Positions 2,586 to 36,113 of a stretch of 38,807 bases of DNA are shown here, one piece after another. The first letter of the stretch is position 1; every line of letters begins with the position of its first letter. The translations under genes and the position numbers were made by a program. The stretch comes from Candidatus Bathyarchaeota archaeon (GTDB lineage: Archaea > Thermoproteota > Bathyarchaeia > Bathyarchaeales > Bathycorpusculaceae). The DNA lies in NCBI GenBank assembly GCA_963775895.1, contig CAVZKL010000007.1, forward strand, positions 1-38,807, in the 5' to 3' direction. A model generated the notes under the pieces. The model searched no databases, had not been told where the DNA came from, and worked only from the letters and a program-made list of their open reading frames with translations.

Positions 2586-2846
2586 CCATGCAAGAATGAT
2601 TCAAACTTTTCCCTCTTCTTTTCTCGGGTATTTGTAAGTTCTCTCCGTAAGCTTGCATCAATTAGAATATCAGTTTCCAGTCAATAGCGCGCGTCTATTT
2701 TCGTTTTCTGAATAGCATTGTTTCATTATGACTGCACACGAACTCAAAACCTGCTTCAATTAGCTTCTTTGCCTCATCCACATTACTGGCCAATGCTGAG
2801 CAGTATTCATCGCGTGCGAGTTGCTTAGACCTGAACCCACATAGAA

Positions 2847-2940
2847 GTGGGCCGGACCGGACTCGAACCGACGACCTTCTGTCCTTTCACTGCGTTCAAG
2901 GACTCCGCTTCGCTCAGCACGTCCAGCAGATGTCCTAACC
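2847..2940 (-). pseudogene. Degenerate tRNA-Val 3' fragment (old att relic) interrupted by a 36-bp hairpin insertion
   Basis: gtgggccggaccggactcgaaccgacgaccttctg [36 nt, 2882-2917] cacgtccagcagatgtccta matches the tRNA at 13739-13793 with 2 substitutions. No 5' acceptor strand and no CCA. Confidence 0.85.
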
Positions 2941-3003
2941 ATTTTACATCATCTTGCGGGCGCACCCCTGCGCTGTAGAATAAAAACGGTGCATTGAATC
3001 GTC

Positions 3004-3602
3004 TTAAGTGCTGCCGATTTTGACAAGTAGATATTTGAAAGCGCCATACGAGGTTTCAGCAATTCGAGAGTAGTTTCGCCAATTGAAATTGTAGGCACCT
3101 CTGATGAGGATGGGCTCTTCCCTTCCGTGAGTTGTACCTTTTGAGGCTTTGTTCCCCACCGCAACTCTCCTGTTGCATTCCTCCCTTGATGAATCCTGAA
3201 ACTTGCGTCGACTGTTTGGCTGTTTATCGGTTCTTTCCAATAAGCGCTGTCGTTGGTGAGAAAAATTGCGTAAGCGATGATTCTGTTAGTAGAAAGGACT
3301 CTTTCGAGTCTCTGAATGTCTTTTAGGTAATCATATCTCGCTAGGTCTTGGGCACTCTGGTCCAAGAGATGAAAGTCCTCGCCTCCAACCGTTACCTCAA
3401 GTCCTCGAGTCTTGTATTTGAGCTCGATTGCCAATACTGTCTCTTTGTCTGCTGCCCAAATATCCAAATAAACACGTTCTTTAGAATGTGGAGGCTTGAA
3501 TTCCAAGCGCATTGAACATTCTGGCCATTCATGATGTATTTGCCAAGCCAATGCGTGCTGAAAGTCAGCTTCTGAGTGGAAGACTGGTCTCTTGCTGGCC
3601 AA
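3004..3602 (-). CDS. Putative PD-(D/E)XK restriction-endonuclease-like protein (frameshift near 3150)
   Basis: FHSEADFQHALAW..YLDIW..AIELKYKT..YDYLKDIQRLE pattern. The C-terminus continues in the 3004-3240 frame (ASKGTTHGREEPI..FKYLLVKI). The start may be about 10 codons further upstream. Confidence 0.6.
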
Positions 3603-3852
3603 TTGAGTCAGAACTCTGTTGACGTCAACTATTGGCGTAGGAAGACCTCGTCATAAAGAATCTTTGAAACAACAGACGATTTATGCATTGCCCGCTGTCT
3701 ACACTGAAGAATAAAAACGTTGCATACCACATATGACTGGCAGTTTTCTATATCACGAGGCATTAATAGCGCGCGCTGTTGTATTAAACAGAATCAACCC
3801 TTCAGGAGTGACTTTTCTAAAAAAAGAGAAGTATATGGATTTTTGGCGAGAC

Positions 3853-4101
3853 TTACTTTTTCTTTGCTGGTTTTTCAAATGTCTCGTAGGCTTTTGCAGC
3901 TTTTGGGTCTAGTGGTTTAAGTTCGGTTATACACCATCGCCTTATCTCGACAGTCATCGTTCCTTCCTTTACTTTACTTGCAAGGTTGTCGGCAACCTTT
4001 GTTGCGTGTTCCTCTTTGGCTCCAGCTTTCTTAACAGAAGCTTTAAGTTTTGCCTTATCGAAATCCTGCGTAGCTCCAGAATGTTTCTTCACTTTAACCA
4101 A
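3853..4101 (-). CDS. Stand-alone ATP-cone domain protein
   Basis: VKVKKHSGATQDFDKAKLKASVKKAG..TVEIRRWCITEL fits the ATP-cone consensus. TTG start follows GGTG. Confidence 0.75.
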   Translation of the reverse strand: MVKVKKHSGATQDFDKAKLKASVKKAGAKEEHATKVADNLASKVKEGTMTVEIRRWCITELKPLDPKAAKAYETFEKPAKKK

Positions 4102-4320
4102 AAAAACACCACAAGCATACATTGTAGATGCCAATTTAAAGTTTTTGGCGGTTCTTCAACTAATTCGTTCATACCTCAAACCTACCTCGCGTGCGCTCTT
4201 GCCAAATGGCAACTTCATGGACCTGACGCAATCAGATGGGTGCACGAACAATGTAGTAATTGTCTCTCAATAGCTACATTGTTTTAGTAGCACCGGCGAC
4301 CAAAGATGCCCTGCTTTGTT

Positions 4321-4369
4321 TTGGTGGGCCAGACCGGACTCGAACCGGCGACCTTCTGCACGTCAAGCA
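4321..4369 (+). repeat. att site: copy of the tRNA-Val 3' half
   Basis: ttggtgggccagaccggactcgaaccggcgaccttctgcacgtcaagca matches 13736-13784 except A4331 versus G. Confidence 0.93.
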
Positions 4370-5100
4370 TCAAAAGACCCTTATTTCGCAAAATGCAGCC
4401 TAAAGAGATTGACGATTTGTTAGAAAAATTCCGTGACTTTGTACTTGTAGACCTGAGACGTGAAAAGAAAACAACTCATGACCATGTCTATTATACCCGC
4501 AAATTCTTAGAACACTTTTCAAAACCTGTTGTCATGATGACAGTTGAAGACGTTCGAGCATATTTTAGAAGTCTGAATAGTGCAAGTTGCCACACCTACA
4601 AGAACACTCTGAGCGCCTTGAAAGTTTTCTTCCGAGACTTCTTAGCCAAGCCCCAATTAATTGAGAGCTTCAAATTTCCAAGACCACCGTTTAAGCCAAA
4701 GCATATTGTGGCAAAAGAGCAGCTTCAAACGTTCTTTAAATCCCTTGAACTACCCAAGGAGAAGGCGTTGTTTCTGCTCTATGCAACAAGTGGGTTGAGA
4801 CGCAATGAAGTCATTTACCTGAAGCCTGAAAACGTGGATTTCAATGGTCGAATGATTACGCCTTGCGTTCATGAGGGCGATACTAAGAAGTCTTGGGTGA
4901 GCTTCTTCAATGTAGAAGCTGAGAAAGCTTTGAATGAATACTTGACTTCTAAGAGACCTTCAGTAAGTCCAAGAGTTTTTCCGATGCCCAGAAGTGAAGA
5001 AAGAGAGCTGTGGAAAACTGCAAAAGACAAGACCAAAATGAACATTACACCTCAACGTCTACGGGAATGGTTTTGCTGTGAAATGGCTCTGCTGGGAGTC

Positions 5101-5174
5101 AATGACCGTTATATTGATGCATACTGTGGAAGAACACAATGACCGTTATATTGATGCATACTGTGGAAGAACAC
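5101..5174 (+). repeat. Exact 37-bp tandem duplication
   Basis: aatgaccgttatattgatgcatactgtggaagaacac occurs at 5101-5137 and 5138-5174. Confidence 0.95.
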
Positions 5175-5268
5175 CAAAGACTATCCTCGCAAGAAATTAC
5201 ACCGACTACTCTCCTGAGAGATTAAAACAGATCTATGAGAAGGCAAATCTCTCGGTGTTGACTTGACA

Positions 5269-5370
5269 CCGAAAGCAAAAACTGTTGATGAAGCAGCGAA
5301 GCTAGTAGAGCAGGGTTTTGAATTCGTTACTGATGTCGATGGAGTGAAGCTGTTCAGAAAGCGAAAGTAG
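5269..5370 (+). pseudogene. Orphan C-terminal tail resembling a second type of archaeal tyrosine recombinase
   Basis: Reads PKAKTVDEAAKLVEQGFEFVTDVDGVKLFRKRK*. I recall this tail from Bathyarchaeia-type integrases; not verified by search. Confidence 0.5.
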
Positions 5371-5383
5371 TTTCCGAATGCTC

Positions 5384-5413
5384 TAGCGCGGGCTAAACTA
5401 CAAGCGCGCGCTA
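5384..5413. repeat. Tandem pair of TAGCGCGCGCTA-like palindromes
   Basis: tagcgcgggcta (5384-5395) and aagcgcgcgcta (5402-5413). Confidence 0.75.
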
Positions 5414-5458
5414 CCAATGATTGGATATAGTAGGCATGAGAGTTTTGTGGGAATGTTT

Positions 5459-6096
5459 CTAAGCAGGGTCTATCAACAAAAGTCTTGTTCCAGTGACGGC
5501 AGAACCTCCAAGGAATCCTGCTACAGGTCCTAGCCATATAGAAAAAGCTCCGATTGTAGCAATCCAGTTTGCAAAATCGATAGCGTTTTTGAGACCCCGC
5601 ACGGTCTTCCGCCATTCCTCAGGAGCAATATCTTCCAGATTAATTAGAGGAATAGCGTCCAACTTCTCGAAAATCTTGAAACTCTTCTTGAGGCGCGAGA
5701 GAATAGTTGACTGGGTAGCCAAAAAACGAATTCGTCTAGTAGAATGTCCCTAATTGAAGCGGGCACAACATGTTCTTCGAATTTTCTTCTGAGGTTCTCA
5801 AAGCCATTATGAAGCGGTTCAGGTATCTTCTCAAAATGCTCTTCCCAATTGAACAATTGAAAATTCTCTTTGGTTTTTTTTATCACGTTTTGCGAGCTGA
5901 GCATTTGCCGTTCTCTGATATAAACACCGTAGAATTCACCAAGCTCATGATCGTTAATTCTTTGAAGACTCATTGGGACGTAGACTATGGGAAACAACTT
6001 TTTCAAGGTCTCCGAAGAGTCCCAGAATTCGCGATGAACTAGTAGGGATGGGTCGATCATTAGGGGCCTAAGTCTTTTCTCAAACAGATTCTCCAT
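5459..6096 (-). CDS. Hypothetical protein, PIN-like N-terminal domain plus hydrophobic Gly-rich C-terminus (frameshift at A-run 5721-5726)
   Basis: LMIDPSLL..IVYVPMSL..ILLDEFVF|LATQSTILSR. The two ORFs join at a homopolymer. Confidence 0.5.
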
Positions 6097-6974
6097 GTTC
6101 TTGCCTTCCGATTCATTAGATTCATTGAAGTCACACTTTACTTATGATTTTCCTAAGGTAGTGGTTTCTTAATTGAAGGGCACGCGCGAACATGGTACAT
6201 TTTCTGGGGAGAAAGTCTTAAACAATTTGTTACTTGACATGAATTGAACCGCTTTTCGTGAGAAAGACTTGCTTTCATCATGTCATTTGTGGTTATTATT
6301 GTCTACGTTGAACATGTTCTAACTCGCGCATTATGACTTTAATTCAACAATGTTGTAAAAAGGATTTAAATAAGCAGACACTAGATACAGCGCTCGCCTT
6401 AGTCATGGAAACACTATGAAAGAGAAGCAAGCCGTACCAGTTTGCACTAGTACAGCTTACCTCCCAAACACGCGTAAACTGCTATTGCAGTATTCGGGAT
6501 TTAAGCTTTACTTGTTCGCGCTTGTTGGGCTTCTTCTTTTTCAGTGGTCCATGCAGAAGGTGATCGTAAGAAATGTCAGTGAGTGTCAAAGTGCTCGCCT
6601 ACACCTTTCCAACAGTGTGCATAGTGATGGGAGTGTTGCTGCTTTTTTCTGACAAGTCAGCAGAAGGCGGCGGGCTCATAGCTCTCGGGGCGCTCTTCCA
6701 AGGTCTCTACCTAGCAGTACGTTACAGAAAGTAGCGAGCTGAATAGGCAAAACAACCCCCTCTCTTTTTCTATTGAGCTTTTAGAACCACTGGCAAGTAA
6801 TGAAGTTCGCGTGCACGTCACAATATGTGTTTGCGCCGTTGAACAAAAGGTCTTGCAGGAATTTGTTGGATACGTAAAATGTTCAATAGCACATGCTTGA
6901 GACAGAATTCTATTGTAGCGACACTGAAACAGATGAGAAGAGAAAATAGACAGGACGTTCTCTATTAGATCGAT

Positions 6975-7199: not shown

Positions 7200-7318
7200 C
7201 CTGAGCACACAAACGTGCGCGCTAACTTGTATTGGCAACCGCATTGAAGAAGAGAATAACTACGGAAACTGAAATCTGTTTTGAAAAATGCTCATAGAAT
7301 GCTGATGCTCGCACGCGC

Positions 7319-7816
7319 CTATTTCTTTGGAATCGGTGAATAAGGAGGAAAAACTCCACCATACTTTTCTAAAAGAAAAACAGACTTTACCATAGCTTTG
7401 TGGACAGCAAAGACAGTATTCATCAAGTTCTGTTTCGTTAAGTTGTCATAGAAAATACGGTTTGAAGAGACAAATAGCTCCTTGAAATCATGGGGAGGCT
7501 TTGGACTGATTTGAAATTCACCAAGCTGACTATCATTCAGCAACGTGAATTGTAAATCCCAATAGTACGCTATCCTTTTTGAATCATCCATAATATTCTT
7601 GTGAAGATTGAGTTGGTCGTTTCCAAGAGTCCACTTGGTTCCGATCACAAAACTGTCAACGAAGTGTACGCTTTGTACCACGTTTAACCATAGATCCACT
7701 GATTTTATCTTAAAGTTGAAGTAAGCATTCGGATCAACGATTTCTTCTGGAGCTAGTGATTCCTCTTTTAGCCAAAGTAGAATCTTATCCCTATTTTCCT
7801 TAATCTTTACACTCAA
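7319..7816 (-). CDS. DUF2299-like (YbjN/chaperone-like fold) protein
   Basis: KILLWLKEE..DPNAYFNF..RIFYDNLTKQNLMNTV pattern. GAGG RBS. Confidence 0.6.
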   Translation of the reverse strand: MSVKIKENRDKILLWLKEESLAPEEIVDPNAYFNFKIKSVDLWLNVVQSVHFVDSFVIGTKWTLGNDQLNLHKNIMDDSKRIAYYWDLQFTLLNDSQLGEFQISPKPPHDFKELFVSSNRIFYDNLTKQNLMNTVFAVHKAMVKSVFLLEKYGGVFPPYSPIPKK

Positions 7817-7822
7817 AATCCC

Positions 7823-8737: not shown

Positions 8738-9063
8738 TTTGGGTCGAATACATGTAGAATACTTTGCAAATATTAGATTTGCCAAAAACCTGCAATGACA
8801 GATGAGTTAAGGATACCCTGCTTGGTGTTATTGATAAGCGGATGGAATTGTTTAGACCAAGAGCGACCTAATCAGAAATAACGTGGAATATTGAGAGGAT
8901 TTGAAATGTCAGAAAGCTTCAACAATACGCCATTTCTCAAGCGTAGTTGACAGGACAATGCCGACATTCACTTTTTCTATACTCATTTTCTCATCATCTC
9001 CATTTTTCAAAACTTGTTGAGAGCAGGCAGCTCCTGCTCCCTATAGAAACACAACCCAAAACA

Positions 9064-10003: not shown

Positions 10004-13000
10004 GTGGAGGAGATTCTGCATCAGGCAGAACAGTCAGAGAAGGAATATGATTGGTGTGGAGCTGCCGAATTATATGAGAAAGCGCTGAATCTGCTGTCCC
10101 AAGATGATTTCTCGAAGATGGGAGAAATTCATGAGCGGTTGGGATATGCTTTTTACCGTTTTGCGTTTCAGGCTGAAAGCAAGGACGAGTTTAGAGAAAG
10201 GTTGCGTCAATCAGTTGCTCACTTATGAAAAGGCTATTGAGTTCTATGGAAAACTGAAAGAGTCCGTGAAAACGGCGAGGACATTGCGATGTAACGCTAT
10301 GATTGCTTACATAGGCTATTGGCTTGCGCCAGAAGCGCATGAAAAGAAGCGACTCATTGATGAGTGTTGGAGACTGACTAAGGAGGCGTTGAACGGCTTC
10401 AAGGAAGCTGGGGACACTTTTGAATACGGAAGAACATACAATCAACTCTCCACAAGCGCTGGGTTTAGAAACTACTATGAATGGGATTGCCAACCGCGAG
10501 AAAAAAGAACCCGCGAAGCTGTGGAAGCCGGGGAGGAGGCAGTCACTTCTCTTTCAGCGTTCGGTCGGTCGATAAGAGATTTCTATGAACTCACAAGAGC
10601 CTACGTAAGAAGTGCTACTTATCTGGAAGCTTTGAGCTATTTTATCCCGAACCCTGATGAACAGAAGGGAACCCGCGAAAAAGCGGCAGGCTACTGGTTG
10701 AAGGCCAGGGAGCTTTCTGAAGAGACAGCTTTCCTGGAATTCTTCCACTCATATTGTTTTCAAGTTCAGCTCATAGGCTGGGAACCAGGCACGAACAGCG
10801 CAATCGAGAACCTGAAAAAAGCTTTGGAGTATGGCACCAAAGCAAAGGACAAAATAGTAGTCGGCGGCTCACTGGATTGGTTAGCATATCACACTGTTTG
10901 GAAGGTGTCAGCAACCGAAAATGTTGTTGAAAAGGTGCAGCTTATTGAAGTGGCCCTTAAACACGCAATTGATGCTAAGAATCAGTTTTCTCAAATTGCC
11001 TTCATTACACCACGCGATGGTTTGTTCTGGGTAGAGGCGCCTCAACCTGAATATTATACAAAACTGGCTCATTGTAAAACAGATTTACGAGAAAGACGAG
11101 AACTGCTAGAAAAGGCAGTCAAGGCTGCCTCAACTTATCAGGAGCGAGCTGAAGACTCAGGATACCCAGATATCATACTGCTGGCGCATCACATATCCAG
11201 TTACTCTTTCGTGCACTTAGCCGAAATACAGGCAAATCCCGAAGAGAAAGAAGAATCTCTAGAGAAAGCACTTGAACACAGAAAAATGTCCATCAGTATT
11301 AGCGACAGAATTACTCCGCCCGCAGCACTGTGGAATCGAGGAATGATGATTGCTGGCCTTGCTGACATTAAACTGGCGCTTGCAGACTTGGCCAAAGATC
11401 CGGCAACAAAGAGGAAAATGCTCGAAGAAGTTGTGTCAGACAGGGAAGAATCACTACAACTTTGTCTCAAGGATATGTCAATGTTCGAAAAAAGGGGAGC
11501 TGTTTCGCTGTTTTCTGTTTTGGGGGGGTCACAAATTGAGTTGGGAGACATGTTAATCCGTCTCTACAGATACACTGGCGATAGGGATCAACTGAGGAGG
11601 GCCATAGCTGCATTTCAAGAAGCCACTGAATCATTTAGAAAACTCGATCTGGTAAGCAGTATAGCTGAGTGTGAGTGGAAGACGGCTCAGGCTTATGACT
11701 CTCTGGGTGAACATTTAAAAGCTGCTGAAAGATTCGAGCTGGCGTCAAGTCAATACGTGGGAGCTGCTGGCAAGATCCCTCAGCTCAAGGACTTCTACAC
11801 GAATTACGCATTGTACATGCAAGCCTGGAGCGAGATTGAAAGGGCCAGGCACAATCATGAAAGGCAGGAATATAGTATAGCAAAAGAACACTTCGAGAAA
11901 GCTGCAACCATTCACAAAACGATCAAACAATGGAATTATATGGCGTCAAACTATGCCGCTTGGGCCGAAGTGGAATATGCGGAAGACTTGAGCAGAAAGG
12001 AAAAAAGCGAAGAAGCACTCAACGGGTTCAAGCAAGCGGCCACACTTTTCAACCAAGCTGAAGATTCTTTCCAGTCAGAGCTCATCAAGACTGAGAGCAT
12101 GGACGAAAAGGAGATGATCACGGATATGCTCAGAGCAACCGAACTAAGACATGAGTACTGCGTTGCCAGGGTGGTGCTTGAGCAAGCCAAAATCCTTGAC
12201 AAAAAAGGTGACCACTACTCAAGCTCCGAAAAATACGGCGAGGTGGCCGAGAGCTTGGAAAGAATGATTCCCGGGCTGGAATCCGAACAGGATGAGAAGG
12301 AAATCAACTACCTCCTTCATCTTTCTCGTGCCTGGCAAAAAATGGCGCAAGCCGAAGCCCAAGCATCACCTGCGTTGTATCTGGAAGCATCGCAGCTTTT
12401 TGAAAAGGCCAAGGATTTCAGTCCAAACGAGAAGACAAATCTGCTAACGCTTGGTCACAGTCGATTCTGCAAAGCTCTCGAGGCGGGAGCGAAATTCACA
12501 GATACTCGAGAGGCAGGACTGCATGCCGCGGCTCTGCAACATTTGGAAAGTGCTGCTGACTATTATTTGAAAGCCGGTTTCGATCATGCTTCGGAATACG
12601 CTAAGGCAACTCGGCTACTGTTTGATGCCTACGTACACATGGACAGCGCTGTGAGAGAAGATGACCTTGAGAAAAAGACCAAACTCTACACGATAGTCGA
12701 AAAGCTACTGCAAACGTCAGCTGGTTCGTACACGAAGGCAGAACATCCGGAGAAAAGGGAGCAAGTGCTTAGAATGCTGAAAAGGGTAAGGGAAGAAAAG
12801 CAGTTTGCGGCATCCCTGGCTGAGGTGCTTTACGCTCCTATAATCACTTCCACAACATCATTTGCCAGTCCAACGCCAACTTCGGAAAGAGCAGTGGGCT
12901 TGGAAAAACTTCAGCATGCACAGATACAGGCAAACGTCATATGCAGCCGGAAAGAACTGGCAGTGGGCGACAGCTTCGACCTGGAAATAGAACTCGCTAA

Positions 13001-13310
13001 CGCAGGAAAAGGCACCGCATCAATGATCAAGATTGCGGGCGCTATTCCCGAAAGCTTCAAGATCATAGAAAAACCTGAAACGTGCCGTTTAGAACTCAAT
13101 GACCTGAACTTGAGGGGAAAGCAACTGGATCCGTTGAAGACAGAAGAGGTCAAGCTTGTTCTTAAGCCGATGCGTCAGGGTACATTCTGCATAAAACCAA
13201 CAATATTCTACATTGACGAAGAAGGCAAGAATAGGTCACATGAACCTGAGCCGATAGCTGTCACAGTCAGAGAACTTGGAATCAAAGGCTGGCTCAAAGG
13301 AGAAAGATGA
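10004..13310 (+). CDS. Large (about 1100 aa) TPR/alpha-solenoid protein with C-terminal Ig-like (CARDB/DUF11-like) domain (frameshift near 10220)
   Basis: Repeated A..Y.KA helices. C-term VGDSFDLEIELANAGKG..LDPLKTEEVKLVLKP..GTFCIKPTIFY. ORF 10004-10228 supplies the N-terminus. Confidence 0.75.
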
Positions 13311-13408: not shown

Positions 13409-13822
13409 ATGACTGAAACGGTAATTACTACTAGAATAAACGGCATAACATCAGAAGAGGACAAAAACTACTTTTTCAGCAAAGCTGAAATTGATTTCCT
13501 AAGGGGAATGAAAGCTGTGAGTTCAAACTATGAAAGAGTGCTACTGCACAGAATCTTCAGAAAACTTGATTGCTTCAAAGAAGATATTCTACCGATTCTG
13601 GCAAAAAATGAGAGAACAGTGTCTTGGGCAGAACGCATTACGGGAAACTGTAACAAAATTACTAATGACAGTAACAACGTTCACAGTAGAGAAAAACTCG
13701 AAAATAGTTTATTTTCTCAAAACAACGATGAAATGTTGGTGGGCCGGACCGGACTCGAACCGGCGACCTTCTGCACGTCAAGCAGATGTCCTACCGAGCT
13801 AGACTACCGGCCCCTGAGATAG
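13409..13822 (+). CDS. intN: N-terminal part of the split integrase, reading through the att/tRNA antisense
   Basis: Contains LVGRTGLEPATFCTSS, the same att peptide that starts intC, in a compatible frame. Confidence 0.85.
   Translation: MTETVITTRINGITSEEDKNYFFSKAEIDFLRGMKAVSSNYERVLLHRIFRKLDCFKEDILPILAKNERTVSWAERITGNCNKITNDSNNVHSREKLENSLFSQNNDEMLVGRTGLEPATFCTSSRCPTELDYRPLR
13737..13813 (-). tRNA. tRNA-Val(GAC), intronless, CCA encoded
   Basis: GGGCCGGTAGTCTAGCTCGGTAGGACATCTGCTTGACGTGCAGAAGGTCGCCGGTTCGAGTCCGGTCCGGCCCACCA. 7-bp acceptor stem, TCTGC/GCAGA anticodon stem, GTTCGA T-loop. Confidence 0.97.
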
Positions 13823-14240: not shown

Positions 14241-14284
14241 GCTAAAAACGGACTCTCAGAACGACTAGCGCACGCGATAGACGC

Positions 14285-14860: not shown

Positions 14861-14930
14861 ATTCCATCCCTACGTCCCAACTGTCCCTCACAATGTATCT
14901 TAGAGTTACAAAGAGATTAGTCTTGCGTAC

Positions 14931-15131
14931 TAGCGCGCGCTCTTTCGAAAGTTTCAAGCCGTCCTTTGCAGGCGTCTGATAATCAGAAACGATGAGGTCG
15001 TATTTCTCCGTCCGCAGCTTTGCAATAGCTTCTTCGACAGAAGCAGCCCTGTCAACTTGAGCAGGCGCTTTCATCTCTAGACGCTGTTTGGTAATGTTCA
15101 ACGAGCAAGAACCATCATCAACAAGCAGGAC
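14931..15131 (-). pseudogene. Truncated response-regulator receiver domain
   Basis: VLLVDD..AASVEEAIAKLRTEKYDLIVSDYQTPAKDGLKL. No start codon, and similarity ends at tagcgcgcgc 14931. Confidence 0.75.
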
Positions 15132-15798: not shown

Positions 15799-16168
15799 TG
15801 AAATCACCAAACATAAGTTGGCAAGCGGATACTTAATGCCAAGCGTTAGTACACCAAGGACCAAACACTGGTACACGATGACACGCCACAGTCCCTGCTC
15901 TGGAAGGGCCCACCCGCACGCGTGCATATTTGGATCCTAATATTCATGATACATTGAAACGAGGAGGGGGAGGGTACACAATAAGCTTTTTTTCAGCGAA
16001 TAACAACATCGCACGCCCAGTCAGCCAAACCCCAATGCACGCGGTGTTCTGGCACAAGCCCTTCAACCCAACAACCTCTCTCACGTCCGAACAGAGACAA
16101 TTCGTGCATTGCGCAAGTCTTTAATCCACTTCACACAATACTAGACGTCTTCAAGATTGGTGAAACGC

Positions 16169-18170: not shown

Positions 18171-18385
18171 CGAACATAAACAACCTGCTTGTCGGTTATT
18201 AACGTATTCGAATCAGATGATCACGCGAGCATCCATCAACCTCAGCCAACCATTTAAGCACTAAAGAATACACCCACAGAAAATGAAAAACAAAAAGCAG
18301 GAAGAGTCTTGAGCAACAAGCACGCGAAGAATTCTCTTGACTAGAGACGCGACAAGCAGCCGAACGCGCGCTCATTCTGTCCTGC

Positions 18386-28056: not shown

Positions 28057-28349
28057 ATGGCTCATCGTTCTCGATGGAACTGCGGTGCATCACAACGATG
28101 CTCGCGCTGAGAGAGGTGGTTATTCGCTGAAAAAAGGCTTATTGTGTACCTCCCCTCCTCGGTTTCAATGTATCGTGAATATTAGGATCCAAATATGTTT
28201 GCGGTGTGGGCGGGGCTTTGGTTGGGGCTGGTGATTAGTGTGGTTGAACATGGTTTGGCTTGCGCTGGGTCTCCTGGTCTCATGGGGTTGAGTTTACCGC
28301 GTGCGATTGGGTTTCGGCCTCTTTCTGATGATCTGATCGCTCGTGTGGG

Positions 28350-30008
28350 CTATTTTAGCATGGGCATCTTGATGCCTTTTTCTCTGGCTATTCTCTGTGC
28401 TTTTTCGTAGCCTGCGTCTGCGTGGCGTACGATTCCTATTCCAGGATCAGTCGTGAGGACGGTCACTATTCGTTTTTCCATTTTCTTGGTTCCGTCTGCC
28501 ACGAGGCACATGCCGGCGTGAATGCTGTAGCCGATGCCCACGCCTCCTCCGTGATGCACGCTGACCCACGTTGCACCGCTGACGGCGTTTATCAACGCGT
28601 TCAGTATTGGCCAGTCTGCGATCGCGTCGCTTCCGTCCTTCATTCCTTCAGTTTCGCGGTTGGGTGAAGCCACGCTTCCGCAGTCGAGGTGGTCTCTTCC
28701 GATCCAAACTGGGCCGGAGAGCTTCTTTTCTGCGACCATTCTGTTGATGGTTTTTCCGAATTTTGCGCGTTCTCCGAAGCCGAGCCAGCAGACCCTTGCG
28801 GGTAAGCCTTGGAACTTGACCTGTTCTCTGGCTTTCTTTATCCAGCGGCAGAGCTGTTCGTTGTATGCGAAGTCCTTTAGGATGACGTTGTCGAGGGTGT
28901 GTATGTCGTCCTCGCTGCCGACGAGTGATGCCCAACGGAAAGGTCCTTTGCCCTCGCAGAACATGGGCCGGATGTATCTCTGCACGAAGCCTGGGAATGC
29001 GAAGGCTTCTTTGTAGCCGGCCTTGAATGCTTGTTCGCGAAGGTTGTTGCCGTAGTCGAAGGTTATGGCGCCTTTTCGCATCATTTTGACCATCGTTTCC
29101 ACGTGGACGCGCATGCTTCTGAACGAAAGATCAACGTATTTTTTGGGATCAGTTCTCCTGAGCTCATCTGCTTCTTTTTTGCTCATACCCGCGGGATAGT
29201 AGCCGTTCAACGGGTCGTGTGCACTTGTTTGGTCAGTTAAAACGTCAGGGGTGACGCCGCGCTTCAACAGTTCAGGAAGTACTTCTGCGGCGTTGCCGAG
29301 AAGTCCTATGCTTCTGGCAACAGTTTTTTCCTTTGCCTCCCTGACGAGTCTCAGGGCTTCGTCTATGTCGTCCGTCCACGTCTCCAAGTATTTGTACTTC
29401 AGCCTGCGGTCAATGGCCCGTTTGTCGATCTCCACGACAAGGACGATGCCACCGTTCATCGTGACCGCCAACGGCTGGGCCCCGCCCATCTCACCCAAGC
29501 CGGCTGTTAGCACGAGTTTTCCCCTTAAGCTTCCGCCGAAGTGTTCCTTGGCAACTTCAGCCAGGGTCTCGTAAGTGCCCTGCAAAATTCCCTGCGTTCC
29601 AATGTAAGCCCATGAACCGGCGGTCATCTGTCCGTACATGATCAAGCCTTTTTGTTCAAGCTCGTAGAAGTAGTCCCAATTCGCCCATTTGGGAACCAAC
29701 ATTGCGTTGACGATGAGAGCTCTAGGAGCATACTCGTGGGTCTTGAAGACGGCTACAGGCTTGCCACTCTGTATGAGCATGGTTTCGTCAGTTTCAAGGT
29801 TAGTCAGGGTTTCAACTATGGCGTCGAAACAATCCCAGCTGCGGGCAGCTCGACCAGTTCCACCGTAGACGATTAATTCATCAGGGTTTTTAGCAACGCT
29901 CGGATCAAGAACGTTGGTTAACATTCGCAGAACTCCTTCAATCTGCCAGTTCTTGCAGTGCAGCTTGTTCCCGGTCAGAGCATGTATAGGCCTTTCAAGT
30001 TTGACCAA
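28350..30008 (-). CDS. hutU: Urocanate hydratase
   Basis: [62 protein letters not shown]. Confidence 0.97.
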
Positions 30009-30083
30009 ACGCTTTCACGACTCAACAAAAGGTACGTCAAAGGTAACTTTAATTCTTTACGAGAATTTTCGAGAAGACTCGTC

Positions 30084-31422
30084 TTACTTTTCCTGTTCTT
30101 CTAAAATTCGAAACTCGCTTCGAGACCCTTCCTTGTCAACGACGATGCGACCGCTCTTTATTACTTTTTCAACGAGGTTGACGCCGAAGCGATAGCCGAG
30201 ACACCTGCAGTTCGGGATGTTGAGAATGATTATGTCGGCTTTCTTCCCAGCTTCTATGCTGCCAATTTCATTCGCTCGGTTCACGGCATGAGCAGCGTTG
30301 ATCGTTGTCGCGGTTATGGCCTCAGCGGGATTTAACTTCATGAAATGGCATGCGAAAGCGATGACTAGTTGTTGGTTCTCCACCCAACAACCGGGGCTGA
30401 AGCCGGTGGCCAATGCTAACGGAACGCCTTCGTTGATCATTGTCCGCGCGTCTGCGAAATGGCCGTTCATAAGACTGAAAGCGGCTGCGGGCAACAGCGT
30501 GCCTACGACGCCTTTGTTGGCCATTGCTTTGATGCCTTCGTTCGAGGCAAAAACCAGATGGTCAGCGGTCACTGCATCGACGCTCGCGGCCAGCTCTGCT
30601 CCACTCTGAGGGCTCATCTCGTCAGCATGCAGTTTCGGTTTCAAGCCCAGGTTCTTTCCTGCGACAAGTACGCGACGAGACTGATCCAGGTTAAAAACAC
30701 CTCGTTCACACAAAACATCGCAGAATTCGGCGAGTCCTTTCTCGGCTACTTTGGGAATCATCTCGTTGACTATCAGATTCACGTAGTCGTCAGGGTTGTT
30801 CACGAACTCTGGAGGCACAGCATGCGCTCCAAGAAAAGTCGGAACCAAATCAACGGAGTGCAGCTGGTTCAGCCGGTCCATTACTTCTAGTATCTTCAAC
30901 TCATCTTTCGTCGTCAAACCATAGCCGCTTTTGGTTTCAACGGTCGTGGTTCCGTGCTCCAGCATCGCATTAAGCGTTTCGGTTCCATTTTCAACGAGTT
31001 TCTCCACGCTAGCTCGCCGCGTTTCTTTGACAGTCTTCAGTATGCCTCCGCCCGCGTGAAGAACTTCCATGTATGAGACCCCTTCTACGCGGAGCTGAAA
31101 TTCGTCTTCGCGCGATCCTGCGAAAACCAGATGCGTGTGCGAATCAATGAAGCCCGGCAGTACAGTTTTGCCGTTTGCGTTCACCATGATTTCCGACTTG
31201 TAGAGCTTTGGTGATCTCTGGCGTTCTCCCGACAGCCGCGATTTTTCCTTCATTCACTGCCACGGCACCATTACGGATTATTCCCAGATCCAGCATCTGT
31301 TTCTCAACACGGGGTTTCTGATTATTTCCAGCAAGCGTGACAAGCTCATTGGCGTTCACAATAAGTAGGTCGACTTTCTCTCGCAACTTTGATTTGACAG
31401 GCTTATTCAAGGAGACCGCCAT
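30084..31422 (-). CDS. hutI: Imidazolonepropionase (frameshift near 31210)
   Basis: PGFIDSHTHLVFAGSREDEF, GTTTVETKSGYGL, FLGAHAVP, KLHADE. The N-terminus lies in ORF 31144-31422. Confidence 0.93.
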
Positions 31423-31858
31423 CAGGATAAGTCTGCAAGAACGTGACCGAGCGCGGATGCGTACTGTGCTTCTTGGACCCGTCGATTGCGAGCGCTATTA
31501 TCGCACAGGTTGAAAGTGTGAAGTCGCAGAAACGCTCAAGTGGCTGCATTCCCGTCTCCCTGGTCTAGAGTAACCCGCCACACGAGGTAATTAAGATATG
31601 CTACCGAACAAGGTCGATCTAGAAAGAAATCGTTTGATCCAAAAGCAAAGAAAGGTCAAGCCCTAGCGATTTTTACTTTGCGCCGGCGATATTACCTGCA
31701 CACTTTTTGCGTACCACTAATAAATCTAATGTTCCACTTTACCTTCAAATGGCACATCTCTGCAAACAATACCCTGAAGAAGGCGCGCGCACCACATCTA
31801 CGAAAAGACTCTTTTGTGAACACGTGTTCTAATTCAAAGCGCGCGTTGATTATGTTTC

Positions 31859-31909
31859 TTAACGTTTCTTCTTCTTCTTGAGTCCTGCGTGTGCTCTTTT
31901 CTTTGGCAT
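31859..31909 (-). CDS. Putative 16-aa basic micropeptide MPKKRAHAGLKKKKKR
   Basis: GGTGA RBS 4 nt before ATG, TATAAG further upstream, flanked by two GCGCGC motifs. Confidence 0.5.
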   Translation of the reverse strand: MPKKRAHAGLKKKKKR

Positions 31910-32003
31910 CTTCTCACCGAGTCTATCTATGTCCATTGTTTCTTATAGGTCTGATAGTTAGTAGCGCGCGCCAAGGGCTATTGGGCTGATGTTAAAGTGC
32001 GAT

Positions 32004-32195
32004 CTATCGTTCTTTGTCCCAGACTGAAACAAACCCACCTGCAGCTATTAGCAGGAATGCCGCAATAAGAAGCGTCTCCCCAGTCCAAGATGAAGGCTGC
32101 ACAATCTTCGCAATATAGAAGATGTATATCAAAAAGCCTAACAATGCTATTGCAGCTATCAATAGTGCCCTAGCTACTATCAGTCGTCGTGCCAT
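32004..32195 (-). CDS. Small two-TM membrane protein
   Basis: Two hydrophobic helices and a GGTGAGGT RBS. Confidence 0.7.
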   Translation of the reverse strand: MARRLIVARALLIAAIALLGFLIYIFYIAKIVQPSSWTGETLLIAAFLLIAAGGFVSVWDKER

Positions 32196-32369
32196 TTATG
32201 TGACCTCACCTAACCAATTGTACGCTGGCTTGTACCTAAAATGGTCAAAAGTGGTATTTATTCCTTTTTAGGCACGCCAGCCTGTTGCTAAATCGATTTC
32301 TCCGCGCGCAGCGTAGCTAAATAATGCCGAGCGCGCTAGTGATCATACTATTAATACAAAAAAAGAGGA

Positions 32370-32570
32370 TTAGGGCCGTCTTTGTATGAGTATCCTGTCT
32401 ATTTTTCCTCCTGCTAGTTGTTCCTGCAACTCTTTGACGAAGCTGTAGAATTCGTCTGGAAACATGGCGGCCTCTGTGTTCATGTCGAACGTTTTTGTCT
32501 GGGCTACGGTGTTGGCGTAAAGGCCGTTCTTAATTCCTTCCACACTAACCCGTACCATACCATCATCCAT
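32370..32570 (-). CDS. Small hypothetical protein
   Basis: 66-aa ORF with TATA-like sequence upstream and a T-run downstream. Confidence 0.55.
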   Translation of the reverse strand: MDDGMVRVSVEGIKNGLYANTVAQTKTFDMNTEAAMFPDEFYSFVKELQEQLAGGKIDRILIQRRP

Positions 32571-32662
32571 AGAAAGAAGAAAGGAAGATAGATTATATAC
32601 ATATCTAACAAGCCACGCGCGCGCTACCTCAACATATCTGACTTCAACTGAGTCGCGTTGAC

Positions 32663-33109
32663 CTATTTGGACAGCCCAAGCTGCTTCATAAACCCGACAA
32701 CATCATAGAATAGCCTTTCTTCAACGATTTCGCCGTTCTTCCAGGTAGCAACTGTGCAGAATTCAAGCTTTGCCGTTTTTCCAGTGGGCGGGATGATCTT
32801 TCCATCTGCGCCTTTCATGGGTCCCTTCATTGTCACTGTCCAATCGGCGACTGTGCACGTGTGGTCTCCGTCACCGAAAGCGATCTTGTAGGGGTTGTTG
32901 ACTAGTTTGTTGTCGAAAGTTTTGAAGAACTCCGTAGCCTCGACATCGTGGTTGTGTCGTCCTCTCGTAGGGTCAGGTTGAGCCGGCCAGTAGACTTTGA
33001 CGTCTTCTCTATGACGCTTCTTGAACGTCTCCCAAAGCGGGCTTTTAGGTCCAGCATTCCAAGCGTCATCAAGTGTCTTCATCAACTCAAGGTTTTCCTT
33101 TACTCCCAT
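32663..33109 (-). CDS. SnoaL-like ester cyclase (NTF2 fold)
   Basis: LDDAWNA..GADGKIIPPTGK..WKNGEIVEERLFYDVVGFMKQLGL. GAGGTGA RBS. Confidence 0.88.
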   Translation of the reverse strand: MGVKENLELMKTLDDAWNAGPKSPLWETFKKRHREDVKVYWPAQPDPTRGRHNHDVEATEFFKTFDNKLVNNPYKIAFGDGDHTCTVADWTVTMKGPMKGADGKIIPPTGKTAKLEFCTVATWKNGEIVEERLFYDVVGFMKQLGLSK

Positions 33110-33230
33110 ATCATTCACCTCACTTTCTATTCTTAGTGTTTAGTGCTAATAAGCGCGCGCATAAGTATCAGATGCAGAACGCTAACCATATACTCTAAAG
33201 AGCCCTAACACAGGATACGAACTATTCTTT

Positions 33231-33812
33231 TCAATGCCGTGCTCTTCGTATCTTTTTTCCAATTGAGAACGCTTGTCCTGTGCGTTTCCCAACTTTATGA
33301 TATGTCATTTGTGCAGGATTCCAGATGATCGGTTTCACTTTCTTAATGTCTGGAAGGTTCTTTTCATTAAGCACAAGAGAATCAGCTTTGACATCCACGA
33401 TTTCACCTATGAACTCTGTGTGTAGCCCAATTTTAATTATTTGAATAACCTTGCACTCTATTATCAGAGGAAATTCTTTCACATAGGGTGCATCAACAAG
33501 ATCGCTTTTCACAGGAGTAAGCCCTGTTGCTGAGAATTTATCCACCGTTTTCCCCGAAGCGATGCCAAAATAATCAGCCTCCTTGGTATAGGTTTCGGAT
33601 GGAATACTCACTGTAAACGATTTCCGTTTCATAATATTTCTATAGGTATACGTAGCTTTTCTCAGAGATACATAGAGACATGGCGGTCGGGAACAACAAA
33701 TTCCTCCCCAAGCAGCAGTCATGACATTTGGTTTTCCCTCTCGATCATAAGTTCCTACAACCCAGACAGGTGTCGTGGGAACGATAGTCTCTGCACCCAA
33801 AGAATTTTTCAT
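33231..33812 (-). CDS. Flavin reductase family protein (flavoredoxin-like)
   Basis: [60 protein letters not shown]. Confidence 0.9.
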
Positions 33813-33857
33813 AAGAAACCTCCTTAACATTTTGTCTTATCAATCGCGCGCGCGACG

Positions 33858-34705
33858 CTAGCGCGGCTTTGTCGCTGAAACGTTAATACTAAGTGTTGCC
33901 TCCAGAATTTCTTTCATTCTCTGTTTTGCCTTCTTGTTCAGTTCGGACACTTTCCTGGTTTCGGTAGCATCCGTTTTTGGATTGAAGACTAGGACTTCTT
34001 CATCAGGATCGCTGGTAAGATCCTCAGAGTGATATGACTTTTCTTGGATTATTCTCACGTTCTTGAATCCGACCGCGTTTATTGTTTCTATGTATTTGTC
34101 CTTCATTATTGCGCCCACAACGCAGCTTGTCGGATTCATTCCTTTCTTCATTGCCTCGGGGAGCTCCTTCAGCAATACGAGATCTGATACCATCAGTCTT
34201 CCTCCAGACTTGAGCACTCTGAACGCTTCTTGGAAGACTTTCTTTTTGTTTGGAGTCAAATTGATCACGCAGTTTGAAATGACTACGTCCACGGTGTTAT
34301 CTGCAACAGGTAAGTTTTCAATTTCTCCTAGTCTGAATTCGACGTTTGCGTATTTGCCTTTTCTAGCGTTCTCTCTCTTGCTTTGTCAATCATTTCGGGT
34401 GTCATGTCCACGCCTATCACTTTCCCTCTCTGACCCACTCTCTTGGCAGCTAGGAAGCAATCAAATCCGCCGCCTGAACCCAAATCGACGACGATCTCTC
34501 CTTCTTGAAGGGAAGTCAACGCTAGGGGGTTTCTGCAGCCCAAGCCCATGTTTGCGCCTTCTGGAGTAGTTTTGAGGTCTTTTTCGGAATATCCCATCTT
34601 CTTGCTGCCTTCGTAAGATGTGCTGTTGCCACGACAGGAACTCTGGTTCGTCGCTATTTTGGCATAGCCTTCGCGTACTTCTCTTCTCTGCTTTTCTTCA
34701 GTCAT
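33858..34705 (-). CDS. arsM: Arsenite methyltransferase (frameshift at the CT repeat near 34370)
   Basis: [61 protein letters not shown]. Confidence 0.85.
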
Positions 34706-34720
34706 GTGACCATCTCCAAA

Positions 34721-35107
34721 TCACTGTGTCTCCTTCTTGCCGAGTTCTCTTTTGGCTTGCTCTTTGAGTTCTCTGATCTTCTCGACGGTTGGCATGACTC
34801 TCTCAAAAAGGCCTTTTCGAGCTAGCATACCTTGTCTAATAAAGAACGCTGCTGCTTCTGATCGGCTTTTGAAAGCTTCAACCTCGACGAGTGCGTCAAT
34901 CTGCTTCAAATCCGCATCGTCCAGTCTCGTCATTACAACATTGCCTCGTTCTCCAAGGCCGTTTCCCAATTTCATTAGAATCTCATCTTTCAATTGGGGC
35001 GAAACCACTTTGCTCTCACCTTCAGGGCAGCAAACCATCATTGCGACTTTCTTCTGCTCATCCTCAATTTTCTTGACGTTTTCCTTGATATTTCCCTTCT
35101 TAATCAT
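34721..35107 (-). CDS. RHH/CopG-like DNA-binding protein with N-terminal CC motif
   Basis: NVVMTRLDDADLKQIDALVEVEAFKSRSEAAAFFIRQG and VCCPEG. Confidence 0.7.
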   Translation of the reverse strand: MIKKGNIKENVKKIEDEQKKVAMMVCCPEGESKVVSPQLKDEILMKLGNGLGERGNVVMTRLDDADLKQIDALVEVEAFKSRSEAAAFFIRQGMLARKGLFERVMPTVEKIRELKEQAKRELGKKETQ

Positions 35108-35129
35108 ATTTCCAGCTCCGCATCATGGA

Positions 35130-35157
35130 TGTAATGTGTAACGTGTAATATGTAACT
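35130..35157. promoter_or_regulatory. Four TGTAAnn heptad direct repeats upstream of the RHH gene
   Basis: TGTAA at 35130, 35137, 35144 and 35151. Confidence 0.65.
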
Positions 35158-35233
35158 CAGCTATTAAGCCTTTGTCTCAATTTAGCGCGCGCGTGCTAGA
35201 TAACCGAACTTCTTTCATTGTCTAGCAAAGAAT

Positions 35234-35692
35234 CTAGCGCGTGCTAGTACTAAGACTCAAACGCATCAGAATTGCCGTTTTTGGGCACGCGCTCTTAAAT
35301 TCCATAGAGTTGGTAATGCTTCCAGTAACATTTTCACGATTATCTTCCTTGAACCCTAGTTTTCGGAACAAGTCTGGAGCTGTAGTTGTCAGCAGTAACA
35401 ATTCACGAATTCCATTCTTCCTTGCTTCATTTATTACATGTTTGACTAGAGAAGACCCATACCCTTGATTTTGCAGGTTCTTGTTTACTGCAACGGATCG
35501 CAAAAGTCCTTTTCCTCCCCATACTTCCAAACCTGCCACACCGTGGATGCTTCCATTGCTCTCCTGAAGAACCCACATTTTGGAATTTTCAAGTCCGTCG
35601 AGAGGCAATTTAAAACCTGAAAGTAACAAGCTAATGCATTCTTTGTCTTCAAGTCGGGCTTGCCTTATCTTAAACGCTTTCTTTAGGTTCAT
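35234..35692 (-). CDS. Arsenic-resistance GNAT N-acetyltransferase (ArsN2-like)
   Basis: GVAGLEVWGGKGLLRSVAV..QNQGYG..LLTTTAPDLFRKLGF..EFKSACPKTAILM. Confidence 0.85.
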   Translation of the reverse strand: MNLKKAFKIRQARLEDKECISLLLSGFKLPLDGLENSKMWVLQESNGSIHGVAGLEVWGGKGLLRSVAVNKNLQNQGYGSSLVKHVINEARKNGIRELLLLTTTAPDLFRKLGFKEDNRENVTGSITNSMEFKSACPKTAILMRLSLSTSTR

Positions 35693-35717
35693 TATCTTGC
35701 TTCTCCCAACTCGCGCG

Positions 35718-36113
35718 CTAACTCTTGTTTATGATCAATTCTTTGACGCGTTGCTCAATATCGTCCCTGATTTTTCGCACTTCTTCTATCGGCTTTCCTT
35801 TGGGGTCTTCAAGCTTCCAGTCAATTGTTGGTTTGAAGAATGGCCCAGGGCAGACCCCATTGTCATTGCAGCCCATGGTAACAATCAAATCAGCGTCTTG
35901 AGTCATCTGGAAAGTGAGCAGCTTGGGCTTATTCATTGATATATCGATGCCCTTCTCCTTCAAGGCTTCCACTACTATGGGGTTGACTTTATTCGCTGGC
36001 TTATTGCCAGCGCTGGAAACGATGAATTTGTCTTTTCCATATTTGTTGGCGAAGGCCTCTGCTATCTGGCTTCTGCCCGCATTCTCAACGCAGACAAAAA
36101 GTATTCGCTTCAA
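35718..36113 (-). CDS. arsC: Arsenate reductase, LMW-PTP type
   Basis: ILFVCVENAGRSQIAEA, IVTMGC..VCP, DWKLEDPKG. Confidence 0.9.
   Translation of the reverse strand: MKRILFVCVENAGRSQIAEAFANKYGKDKFIVSSAGNKPANKVNPIVVEALKEKGIDISMNKPKLLTFQMTQDADLIVTMGCNDNGVCPGPFFKPTIDWKLEDPKGKPIEEVRKIRDDIEQRVKELIINKS

Follow-up and report, generated by a model that had tools for sequence, protein, structure and literature searches.

Contig C7 of a Bathyarchaeia metagenome-assembled genome (MAG), analysed here as a window over its entire 38,807 bp, carries between its genes numerous copies of a short GC-rich palindrome with the core GCGCGCGC. The motif is a highly iterated extragenic palindrome, a known kind of element of which no archaeal description was found in a full-text literature search, and its density increases genome-wide from conserved syntenic gaps to the gaps between lineage-specific genes. 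Compared with matched control positions, it coincides far more often with the ends of homologous DNA blocks. The best-supported reading of these sequence comparisons, to which we give a probability of roughly 45%, is, tentatively, that it marks a break-and-join point at which a sequence-specific process exchanges DNA.

The MAG, referred to as G000, comprises 28 contigs and 1.77 Mb and is 89% complete. It was compared with G001, a complete genome of the same genus (2,346,764 bp), and the window was also compared with other same-genus genomes, including G002, G005, G008 and G009. Coding and intergenic DNA were delimited with a crude open reading frame (ORF) caller of our own (1967 genes, 81% coding), some of the labels being uncertain. 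Orthologs between G000 and G001 were taken as the 1053 reciprocal best hits, with a median amino-acid identity of 75%. The class-wide survey covered an even sample of 201 Bathyarchaeia genomes, and a narrower set consisted of 31 genomes. Metagenome runs were consulted as short Logan contigs, and the joints and loose ends reported from them are the best supported, beyond which there are 25 and 771 more, respectively.

As a whole, 254 GCGCGCGC sites were counted in G000 and 464 in G001. Under a maximal-order Markov model, words containing GCGCGCGC are the most over-represented 8-mers of G000. Compared with a first-order Markov expectation, the intergenic core, counted on both strands, occurs 414 times vs. 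7.4 in G000 (56-fold) and 798 times vs. 11.3 in G001 (71-fold); the enrichment over background, first noticed in the window from its letters alone, is real and extends to the whole genome. An alignment of 210 intergenic copies gave the consensus (t)A-GCGCGCGC-T(a), with A at position -1 and T at position +1 (~50%), and a weaker preference for T at -2 and A at +2. This profile has no conserved sequence outside the core and positions +/-1 and +/-2, and copies oriented by their upstream gene have neither a T-run nor any other asymmetric flanking signal. Complete TA...TA flanks were found in only 13 of the 254 cores of G000. Among exact 8-nt intergenic runs, the phase GCGCGCGC is strongly favoured over CGCGCGCG (114 vs. 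22 in G000 and 214 vs. 30 in G001); run lengths vary from 7 to 10 nt and peak at 8 nt in both genomes, with fewer runs beyond 8-9 nt. The motif is a defined palindrome of 10-12 bp, neither a dinucleotide microsatellite nor a generic Z-prone tract: the strict phase and the length peak at 8 bp argue against a Z-DNA reading, and neither the phase independence nor the favoured longer runs of a Z-DNA-prone tract were observed.

Variants one internal step away from the core are also found above expectation, 6-7 times for transitions and 2-4 times for transversions. An earlier note on this DNA, made from the sequence alone, had remarked that substitutions mostly keep the purine/pyrimidine alternation; transitions are indeed the commonest change, but ordinary mutation suffices for the variants that keep alternation, since their transition/transversion ratio (~2.1 after background subtraction) is not above that of population variants (~3.2). 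Such a halo is the pattern that would be expected of copies born perfect and decaying later. The G000-G001 alignments contain 66 motif copies, mostly 7-mers in genes, of which 3 are identical, 58 substituted, 4 partly gapped and 1 a clean 9-bp indel. The last, located at G001:1350331, is a clean presence/absence of CGCGCGCGC with respect to G000 and the sole such indel among the 66 aligned copies. Pairing of neighbouring copies into hairpins was considered and rejected, as the excess of short spacings is about what random intergenic placement gives by our own rough estimate.

Concerning its location, the motif is almost confined to intergenic DNA. Coding vs. intergenic 8-nt runs number 19 vs. 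136 in G000, a 30-fold gap in density, and 23 vs. 244 in G001, a 45-fold gap. Normalised per available position, the density is ~1/kb across most intergenic DNA, with 2.3-2.6/kb in the first 10 nt past stop codons (nine copies include the G of a TAG stop codon) and 0.2-0.6/kb, i.e. 3-4 times lower, within 40 nt upstream of start codons. By gap type, density is highest between convergent genes (1.36/kb in G000 and 1.45/kb in G001), while divergent gaps are the poorest in G000 (0.30/kb) but not in G001, where they equal co-directional gaps (0.80/kb). T5 tracts, oligo-T being the usual archaeal terminator signal, form a separate peak 10-30 nt past stops. Within 80 nt of the stop they are less frequent with the motif than without it in G000 (11% vs. 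23%, p = 0.004), the difference not being significant in G001 (19% vs. 22%).

The density of the motif also follows gene conservation. Syntenic gaps, in which both genes are orthologous and adjacent in both genomes, have 0.17/kb in G000 (7 copies in 41.5 kb), compared with 0.63/kb where both flanks are orthologous but non-adjacent in G001, 0.87/kb where one flank has an ortholog and 1.26/kb where none has. This gradient persists within gap-length classes; in gaps of at least 200 nt, for instance, there are 5 copies in 19.3 kb of syntenic gaps vs. 117 in 100 kb of gaps between non-orthologous genes. Likewise, the motif was found in 4.1% of the 3' flanks of the 1053 reciprocal-best-hit genes, 6.9% of those of non-reciprocal genes and 16.3% of those of the 467 genes without hit. 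Since density rises stepwise as orthology and synteny fall, the enrichment in accessory DNA perceived in the window holds genome-wide. The motif is nevertheless more than the mark of accessory zones for which it had been taken, being a general extragenic element at ~1/kb of non-promoter intergenic DNA. Among the 1053 orthologous 3' flanks, the two species share the motif at 7, while 36 have it just in G000 and 37 just in G001 (odds ratio 5.1, p = 0.0014): conservation of 3' sites between the two species is above chance yet low, and the motif turns over fast. As for the glmS-region loci of other Bathyarchaeia genera, 12 out of 13 contain no GCGCGCGC.

The association of the motif with DNA junctions was analysed by self-BLAST, excluding high-copy repeats, with controls taken at the same offset from gene ends in the same type of gap. 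Ends of low-copy paralogous high-scoring segment pairs (HSPs) lie within 3 nt of 27 of 295 motif copies in G000, vs. 26 of 2823 controls (odds ratio 10.8, p = 7e-15), and of 73 of 535 copies in G001, vs. 54 of 5109 controls (odds ratio 14.8, p = 5e-43). These ends cluster inside the motif and the adjoining 10 nt, and are back to the background level by 20 nt. In a BLAST control with ~380 frequent intergenic 8-mers, the median was 0-1.9% and the 95th percentile 4.9-7.5%, vs. 10.1% and 14.3% for GCGCGCGC; among the control words listed (the top eight per genome), only those with small numbers match the level of GCGCGCGC, and these are mostly derived from the motif.

Individual loci display the same behaviour. 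Three of them have the combinations P-motif-X, P-motif-Q and Y-motif-Q, with homology up to the 8-mer and unrelated DNA beyond. In G001, three cassettes with the motif at both ends and unrelated flanks were found: one of 585 bp with 100% identity (1421017-1421601 and 715099-715683), one of ~950 bp with 93% identity (2297512-2298458 and 999121-1000073) and one of ~300 bp (807376-807673 and 1044397-1044699). Each of the 10 module loci examined contains one called gene, and a Pfam search with five module genes gave a CRM/YhbY domain, a stand-alone AsnC ligand-binding domain, a CxxCxxCC protein and two genes without match. Also in G001, a 13.7-kb island is flanked by a ~70-bp direct repeat of its target, and the motif is located exactly between the last island gene and the right repeat.

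In the window itself, blocks at least 80% identical to other contigs or species end, by eye, on five of the eight motif copies between 31.7 and 33.9 kb, and shared blocks end on three of the nine copies of the first 16 kb. G005 and G009 contain the flavin-reductase gene at 94-97% identity but in different contexts; on one side the homology breaks off at the motif copy of the window, and on the other at the copies belonging to those two genomes. A joint between positions 33154, which lies inside a motif copy, and 31711 was seen in metagenome contigs from two studies. Among the loose ends listed, 31792, 31845 and 32612 (the last in two runs) are at or beside copies, while 32269, 34414 and 35791 are away from them. 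In addition, a motif copy lies no further than 25 nt from 4 of the 56 contig ends of G000, contig C9 beginning with one, which suggests that assemblies break beside motif-bounded repeated modules.

As a break-and-join point, the motif would work as follows. Segments bounded by its copies, often single small genes, would be copied or moved to other copies, by strand exchange or cleavage inside the motif and presumably under the action of a horizontally spread enzyme; each new joint would carry a perfect copy, which would then decay, mostly through transitions. Such a process would explain the near-absence of the motif from genes and from the 40 nt upstream of starts, its position beside stop codons, its rarity in conserved syntenic gaps and abundance between lineage-specific genes, and its quick turnover between species. 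In a bolder version, possible if doubtful, the 8-12 bp palindrome would be the entire site of a new archaeal cassette-shuffling system, in which a horizontally spread enzyme would cut and rejoin at GCGCGCGC, making any gene between two copies mobile and doing the job of an integron without attC or IntI.

Several results weigh against a break-and-join point. Most junctions lack the motif: no end falls on it in 347 of the 427 low-copy HSP pairs of G001 and in 150 of the 174 of G000. The excess of homology blocks ending on the motif over matched controls fits the joining signal proposed earlier, but these counts speak against a simple one. Nor is the motif regularly present at the edges of lineage-specific insertion intervals: of 67, many of which are single small ORFs from the crude caller, 53 have the motif at neither edge, 11 at one edge and 3 at both. 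Ends of the G000-G001 alignments are not enriched at the motif in G000 (9 of 295, 3.1%, vs. 78 of 2823, 2.8%) and only weakly so in G001 (22 of 535, 4.1%, vs. 113 of 5109, 2.2%), although such between-species ends were judged uninformative at ~75% amino-acid identity. A strict copy is present in just one partner, at one end or more, in 74 of the 80 motif-ended HSPs. The flanks of the cassettes are all non-syntenic; 8 of the 10 module loci had flanking orthologs, each on different G000 contigs, and the remaining 2 had no orthologous flank within 8 kb on one or both sides. The window also contains an integrated tRNA-Val element, described below, that ends on the motif at neither side. Furthermore, homology ends at an abundant GC-rich 8-mer could reflect passive microhomology. 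Finally, 10-12 bp is too short in comparison with the core sites of known tyrosine or serine recombinases, and a palindrome of this size would fit a homodimeric nuclease-like enzyme better than either.

The distribution of the motif among genomes was analysed with the word AGCGCGCGCT. Each of the 10 other genomes of this genus has 7-114 copies (reversed control 0-4), compared with 0 or 1 in 20 genomes from different genera within the same family and order. Among the 201 genomes of the class, 20 are rich (at least 10 copies, up to 131, with a control of at most 5) and belong to seven families, while 105 have none. In one other genus, a single genome has 14 copies and the remaining ten have 0-3. 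This patchiness suggests a horizontally moving agent rather than an ancient core function. In five genomes of another Bathyarchaeia family (G088, G102, G138, G141 and G204, family f24), the reversed-phase word TCGCGCGCGA has 13-26 copies vs. 1-9 for AGCGCGCGCT, which may be a second 'dialect' with a CGCGCGCG core.

A recombinase or methyltransferase distributed like the motif, which the earlier note had suggested looking for, was not found among the families tested, and the results for transposases and recombinases add to the points against a dedicated exchange process. Y1/RAYT transposases (PF01797) were found in none of the 31 genomes, G000 and G001 included, positive controls being detected. 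The IS630-type transposase domain DDE_3 was found in 14 of the 201 genomes, mostly motif-poor ones, and in 2 of the 20 rich genomes; it was not found in G000 and is common in motif-free genomes of another genus. Tyrosine recombinases occur in rich and poor genomes alike, with 10 in G000, 9 in G001, 7 in the motif-free G018 and only 1 and 2 in the motif-rich G115 and G113, respectively. Serine recombinase and TnpB were found in neither G000 nor G001. As for methyltransferases, the C5 family PF00145 was found neither in G000, 89% complete, nor in the complete G001, and is present in 2 of 10 genus members, while the N4/N6 family PF01555 is found in 28 of 31 genomes, with or without the motif.

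Among the other explanations, the main one is that the motif is selected for a different role, either as the site of a homodimeric chromatin, insulator or roadblock protein or as a 3'-end element, the junctions being a by-product of microhomology or template switching that happens to use the commonest GC-rich 8-12-mer of intergenic DNA. We regard this as rather unlikely. The density maximum in the first 10 nt past stops, the lower density upstream of starts and the richness of convergent gaps all agree with it. A perfect palindrome of 10-12 bp is the usual footprint of a homodimeric DNA-binding protein, the 74 motif-ended HSPs with a strict copy in one partner are what opportunistic joining predicts, and orthologous 3' flanks share copies above chance. 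However, a core regulatory or architectural role is ill-suited to a distribution that is patchy even inside a single other genus and to the near-absence from syntenic gaps of at least 200 nt; moreover, only 7 of 43 orthologous sites are retained between the two species, and there is no candidate protein for this role.

It is improbable that the motif is an alternative transcription terminator, or a stabiliser of RNA 3' ends comparable to repetitive extragenic palindromic (REP) sequences, at the end of single-gene units. The peak just past stops, the enrichment of convergent gaps and the scarcity of T5 tracts beside the motif in G000 favour such a role, and accessory genes, more often single-gene units, could in this way explain part of the accessory bias. 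Nonetheless, the T5 relation is absent in G001, where divergent gaps moreover equal co-directional ones. An 8-nt self-complementary GC run cannot fold into a hairpin alone, no T-run or asymmetric flank accompanies it, and the motif is patchy among close relatives that presumably have a common transcription machinery. An archaeal intrinsic terminator in the usual sense was rejected, the motif having no T-run beside it and the T5 peak being separate from it.

A comparably low probability was given to the excision footprint, or minimal terminal repeat, of a cut-and-paste transposon, with the segments between copies mobilised in trans. Tc1/IS630-type elements leave palindromic scars flanked by TA, and the perfect palindrome, its preference for T-A flanks, run lengths of 7-10 nt about a mode of 8, the extragenic position, quick turnover and patchy phylogeny, as well as the cassettes with the motif at both ends, would all be in line with such scars. 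Yet full TA...TA flanks are exceptional among the cores of G000, no transposase is associated with the cassettes, and the IS630-type DDE_3 domain is not found in G000 and is found in just 2 of the 20 rich genomes.

The least probable explanation is a palindrome akin to highly iterated palindrome 1 (HIP1, GCGATCGC) of cyanobacteria, kept by a mutation or repair bias linked to a cytosine methyltransferase (very-short-patch-like), or else a Z-DNA-prone element. Both motifs are 8-bp GC-rich palindromes, over-represented by orders of magnitude and lineage-specific, and the variants of the present motif are mostly CG to TG/CA transitions; but HIP1 is abundant inside genes and tied to cognate methyltransferases, while the present motif is 30-45 times rarer in genes and poorly kept at orthologous sites, its one-step neighbours are enriched instead of depleted, their transition/transversion ratio is not raised, no C5 methyltransferase was found in G000 or G001, the N4/N6 enzymes are present regardless of the motif, and for Z-DNA the strict phase, the length peak at 8 and the absence of any preference for longer runs are unfavourable. 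A Type II restriction site was likewise rejected: the motif is 56-71 times over-represented in intergenic DNA instead of being avoided, and no consistent cytosine methyltransferase was found, no search for restriction endonucleases having been made.

The motif was also compared with integron cassette arrays. In integrons, the attC site is an imperfect hairpin of 55-140 nt with R''/L''...L'/R' boxes. The likeness lies in unrelated single small genes, each with a palindromic site behind it and sharing one orientation in the array at 32.6-36.1 kb of the window, and in the same cassette occurring in unrelated contexts with homology ending at the site, as in the 585-bp pair of G001. On the other hand, the motif is a perfect palindrome of 10-12 bp with information only in its core and at positions +/-1 and 2, a statement based on the profile, no attC covariance model having been run. 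It is dispersed genome-wide at ~1/kb of intergenic DNA without a single platform, the array in G001 is of mixed orientation, and no integrase stands beside the arrays, the only tyrosine recombinase of the window (4306-5142) being ~27 kb away in the tRNA-Val element. An integron array was therefore rejected: cassettes in new contexts are present, but attC hairpins and boxes and an adjacent IntI-type recombinase are missing. Each of the three affinities proposed earlier thus fails on at least one tested feature, HIP1 on rarity in genes and the methyltransferase, the integron on attC and the integrase, and Z-DNA on phase and length. Integron gene cassettes with attC sites have been reported in archaeal MAGs (PMC9668308). 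The earlier remark that the present motif had not been described in archaea agrees with a full-text literature search, in which no description was found.

Two other kinds of repeated sequence were compared with the motif. With REP sequences and bacterial interspersed mosaic elements (BIMEs), it has in common an extragenic location, hundreds of copies, a bias towards 3' ends and convergent gaps (weaker in G001), lineage specificity and presence at rearrangement points. REP sequences are imperfect hairpins of 20-40 nt with a conserved tetranucleotide head, found in bacteria with RAYT transposases. The motif is, in contrast, 8-12 nt long, perfect and loop-less, has no tetranucleotide head and, with Y1/RAYT in none of the 31 genomes, was not retained as a REP/BIME; the extragenic 3' bias is present, the 20-40 nt stem-loop and the RAYT are not. 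The DNA uptake sequences and uptake signal sequences (DUS/USS) of Neisseria and Pasteurellaceae are similar in their 10-12 nt, hundreds of copies, lineage specificity and possible 'dialects', for which the TCGCGCGCGA excess of family f24 could be a parallel. Uptake sequences, however, are non-palindromic and enriched in core DNA. The motif is a palindrome, and its density between accessory genes is 7 times that of syntenic gaps (1.26/kb between ortholog-less genes vs. 0.17/kb); this candidate was also rejected.

Bathyarchaeia are abundant and uncultured and, to our knowledge, nothing is known of their gene exchange. The motif is simple to score and separates old syntenic DNA from recently rearranged or acquired DNA, thereby offering a handle on genome plasticity in this class. 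The 20 rich genomes vs. the 105 copy-free genomes out of 201 provide a strong contrast for finding a co-distributed enzyme which, if it exists, would represent a very compact sequence-specific DNA-joining activity. Even as a passive hot spot or a protein-binding site, the motif would be a highly iterated archaeal extragenic palindrome for which the literature search found no description.

The copies present in the window are listed in Table 1. Twelve matches to TAGCGCGCGCTA with at most two mismatches were found, whereas the mean over 100 dinucleotide shuffles was 0.87 and the highest count 3, none of them reaching 12. Alternating C/G runs of at least 6 nt number 20, of which 14 have at least 7 nt, and there are ~6 degenerate copies besides. 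The 'more than 20 clear copies' of the earlier note are a generous count: three 6-mer runs (30445, 31109 and 37281) fall within genes that are well supported, and a number of further copies are degenerate. All the positions that it cited do hold a copy or a variant one to two transitions away. Its housekeeping block, 15-31 kb, indeed has a single clear intergenic copy (18365-18371), compared with 10 runs of at least 6 nt between 31.4 and 36.2 kb. The region 32.6-36.1 kb is an array of small genes on one strand with a motif copy in most of its short spacers; the products are a SnoaL-like protein, a flavin reductase, a split methyltransferase, an unknown protein, a GNAT acetyltransferase and a low-molecular-weight phosphatase.

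Table 1. Motif copies in the 38,807-bp window, with their setting and the observations made at each of them.
Position	Copy	Setting	Observation
2687..2693	GCGCGCG (aataGCGCGCGtcta)	Intergenic	Paralogous block C9:2481-2605 starts at 2687; genus blocks start at 2685-2697; shared left block in G009 likewise ends at GCGCGC
3769..3776	aataGCGCGCGCtgtt	Intergenic, 76 nt past stop of 3853-4101(-)	C/G-run and mismatch scan
5384..5395	TAGCGCGGGCTA, degenerate	Within doubtful ORF 5181-5615, no Pfam match	1 mismatch
5402..5413	AAGCGCGCGCTA	18 nt from copy 5384..5395	C/G-run and mismatch scan
7217..7222	gtGCGCGCta, short	Intergenic	C/G-run scan
7311..7318	GCACGCGC, degenerate	Adjoining CTA stop (at 7319) of 7319-7816(-)	Read from sequence
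14266..14277	TAGCGCACGCGA, degenerate	Between convergent ORFs	G002 (95%) and G008 (89%) blocks end at 14266
14931..14942	TAGCGCGCGCTC		G005 block (85% identity) ends at 14928
18365..18371	CGCGCGC	14 nt past glmS stop	G001 has GCGCGC at equal offset behind its glmS
31783..31790	GCGCGCGC	End of repeated module 31711-31783	Blocks end at 31783-31791 (G000 paralogs, other same-genus genomes)
31839..31845	GCGCGCG		Run X4 metagenome contigs diverge before 31845
31962..31973	TAGCGCGCGCCA	Linking two modules	Blocks end at 31961-31971; another starts at 31963
32303..32309	CGCGCGC	Right end of module 31963-32309	92% G009:C1 block runs 31963-32309, motif copy to motif copy
32331..32336	GCGCGCta, short		C/G-run scan
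32616..32624	CGCGCGCGC	Between 66-aa ORF and SnoaL gene	99% copy C10:42206-42466 ends at 32625, unrelated flanks beyond; G009 block starts at 32625; contigs of runs X5 and X8 diverge at 32612
33153..33160	GCGCGCGC	Between SnoaL and flavin-reductase genes	Contigs in runs X1 and X4 join 33154 to 31711
33845..33854	CGCGCGCGCG	3 nt past stop of 33858-34292(-)	G009/G005 blocks (94-97% identity) end at 33843
35185..35193	GCGCGCGCG	40 nt past GNAT gene stop	C/G-run and mismatch scan
35235..35246	TAGCGCGTGCTA, degenerate	At stop of 35234-35692(-)	1 mismatch, a transition
35712..35718	CGCGCGC	Overlapping TAG stop of 35718-36113(-)	G001 ortholog has GCGCGCGC 2 nt past its stop

The tRNA-Val element mentioned above is delimited by a 49-nt direct repeat, 98% identical, of the 3' half of tRNA-Val (4321-4369 and 13736-13784), bracketing ~9.4 kb. 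The tRNA-Val gene is at 13737-13813 (-) and a tyrosine integrase gene, 4306-5142 (+), begins within the left repeat, so that the 9.4-kb segment looks like an integrated element whose att site lies inside its own integrase gene. It encodes a 1068-aa protein (10104-13310), the sole Pfam match of which is weak and TPR/SNAP-like; this protein has paralogs on contigs C18 and C22 and several copies in each genome of the genus.

Archaeal genes of the window include Trm5/TYW2, an RNA cyclase and a helix-turn-helix protein with an S-layer-like domain, and the closest public GlmS loci all belong to Bathyarchaeia MAGs, with 69-79% amino-acid identity. A dispersed repeat of ~80 nt was also found at 15921-16003 and 28113-28197; over 30 copies of it, 88-99% identical, are scattered across many G000 contigs. 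It is present in all the genomes of the genus and has one weak match elsewhere in the 201-genome sample, a distribution that does not follow the motif. One of its words, TAGGATCC, ranks second among the over-represented 8-mers of G000. The repeat has no Rfam match and does not fold better than its shuffles (z = -1.6); it may be a miniature inverted-repeat transposable element or a small RNA gene.

Two genes of the window are each split into two ORFs, a hutI-like amidohydrolase gene (30084-31422) and the methyltransferase gene (33858-34705). For the former, the split may be strain-specific or an assembly error, since one base at 31206 is absent from the contigs of three metagenome runs. The core block contains, at 28350-31253, a histidine-utilisation pair consisting of urocanase and an imidazolonepropionase-like amidohydrolase. 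Finally, the 3' end of the urocanase gene, together with the adjoining intergenic DNA (28306-28658), has a copy with 94% identity on another contig of the same genome (G000:C17, 50784-51136).

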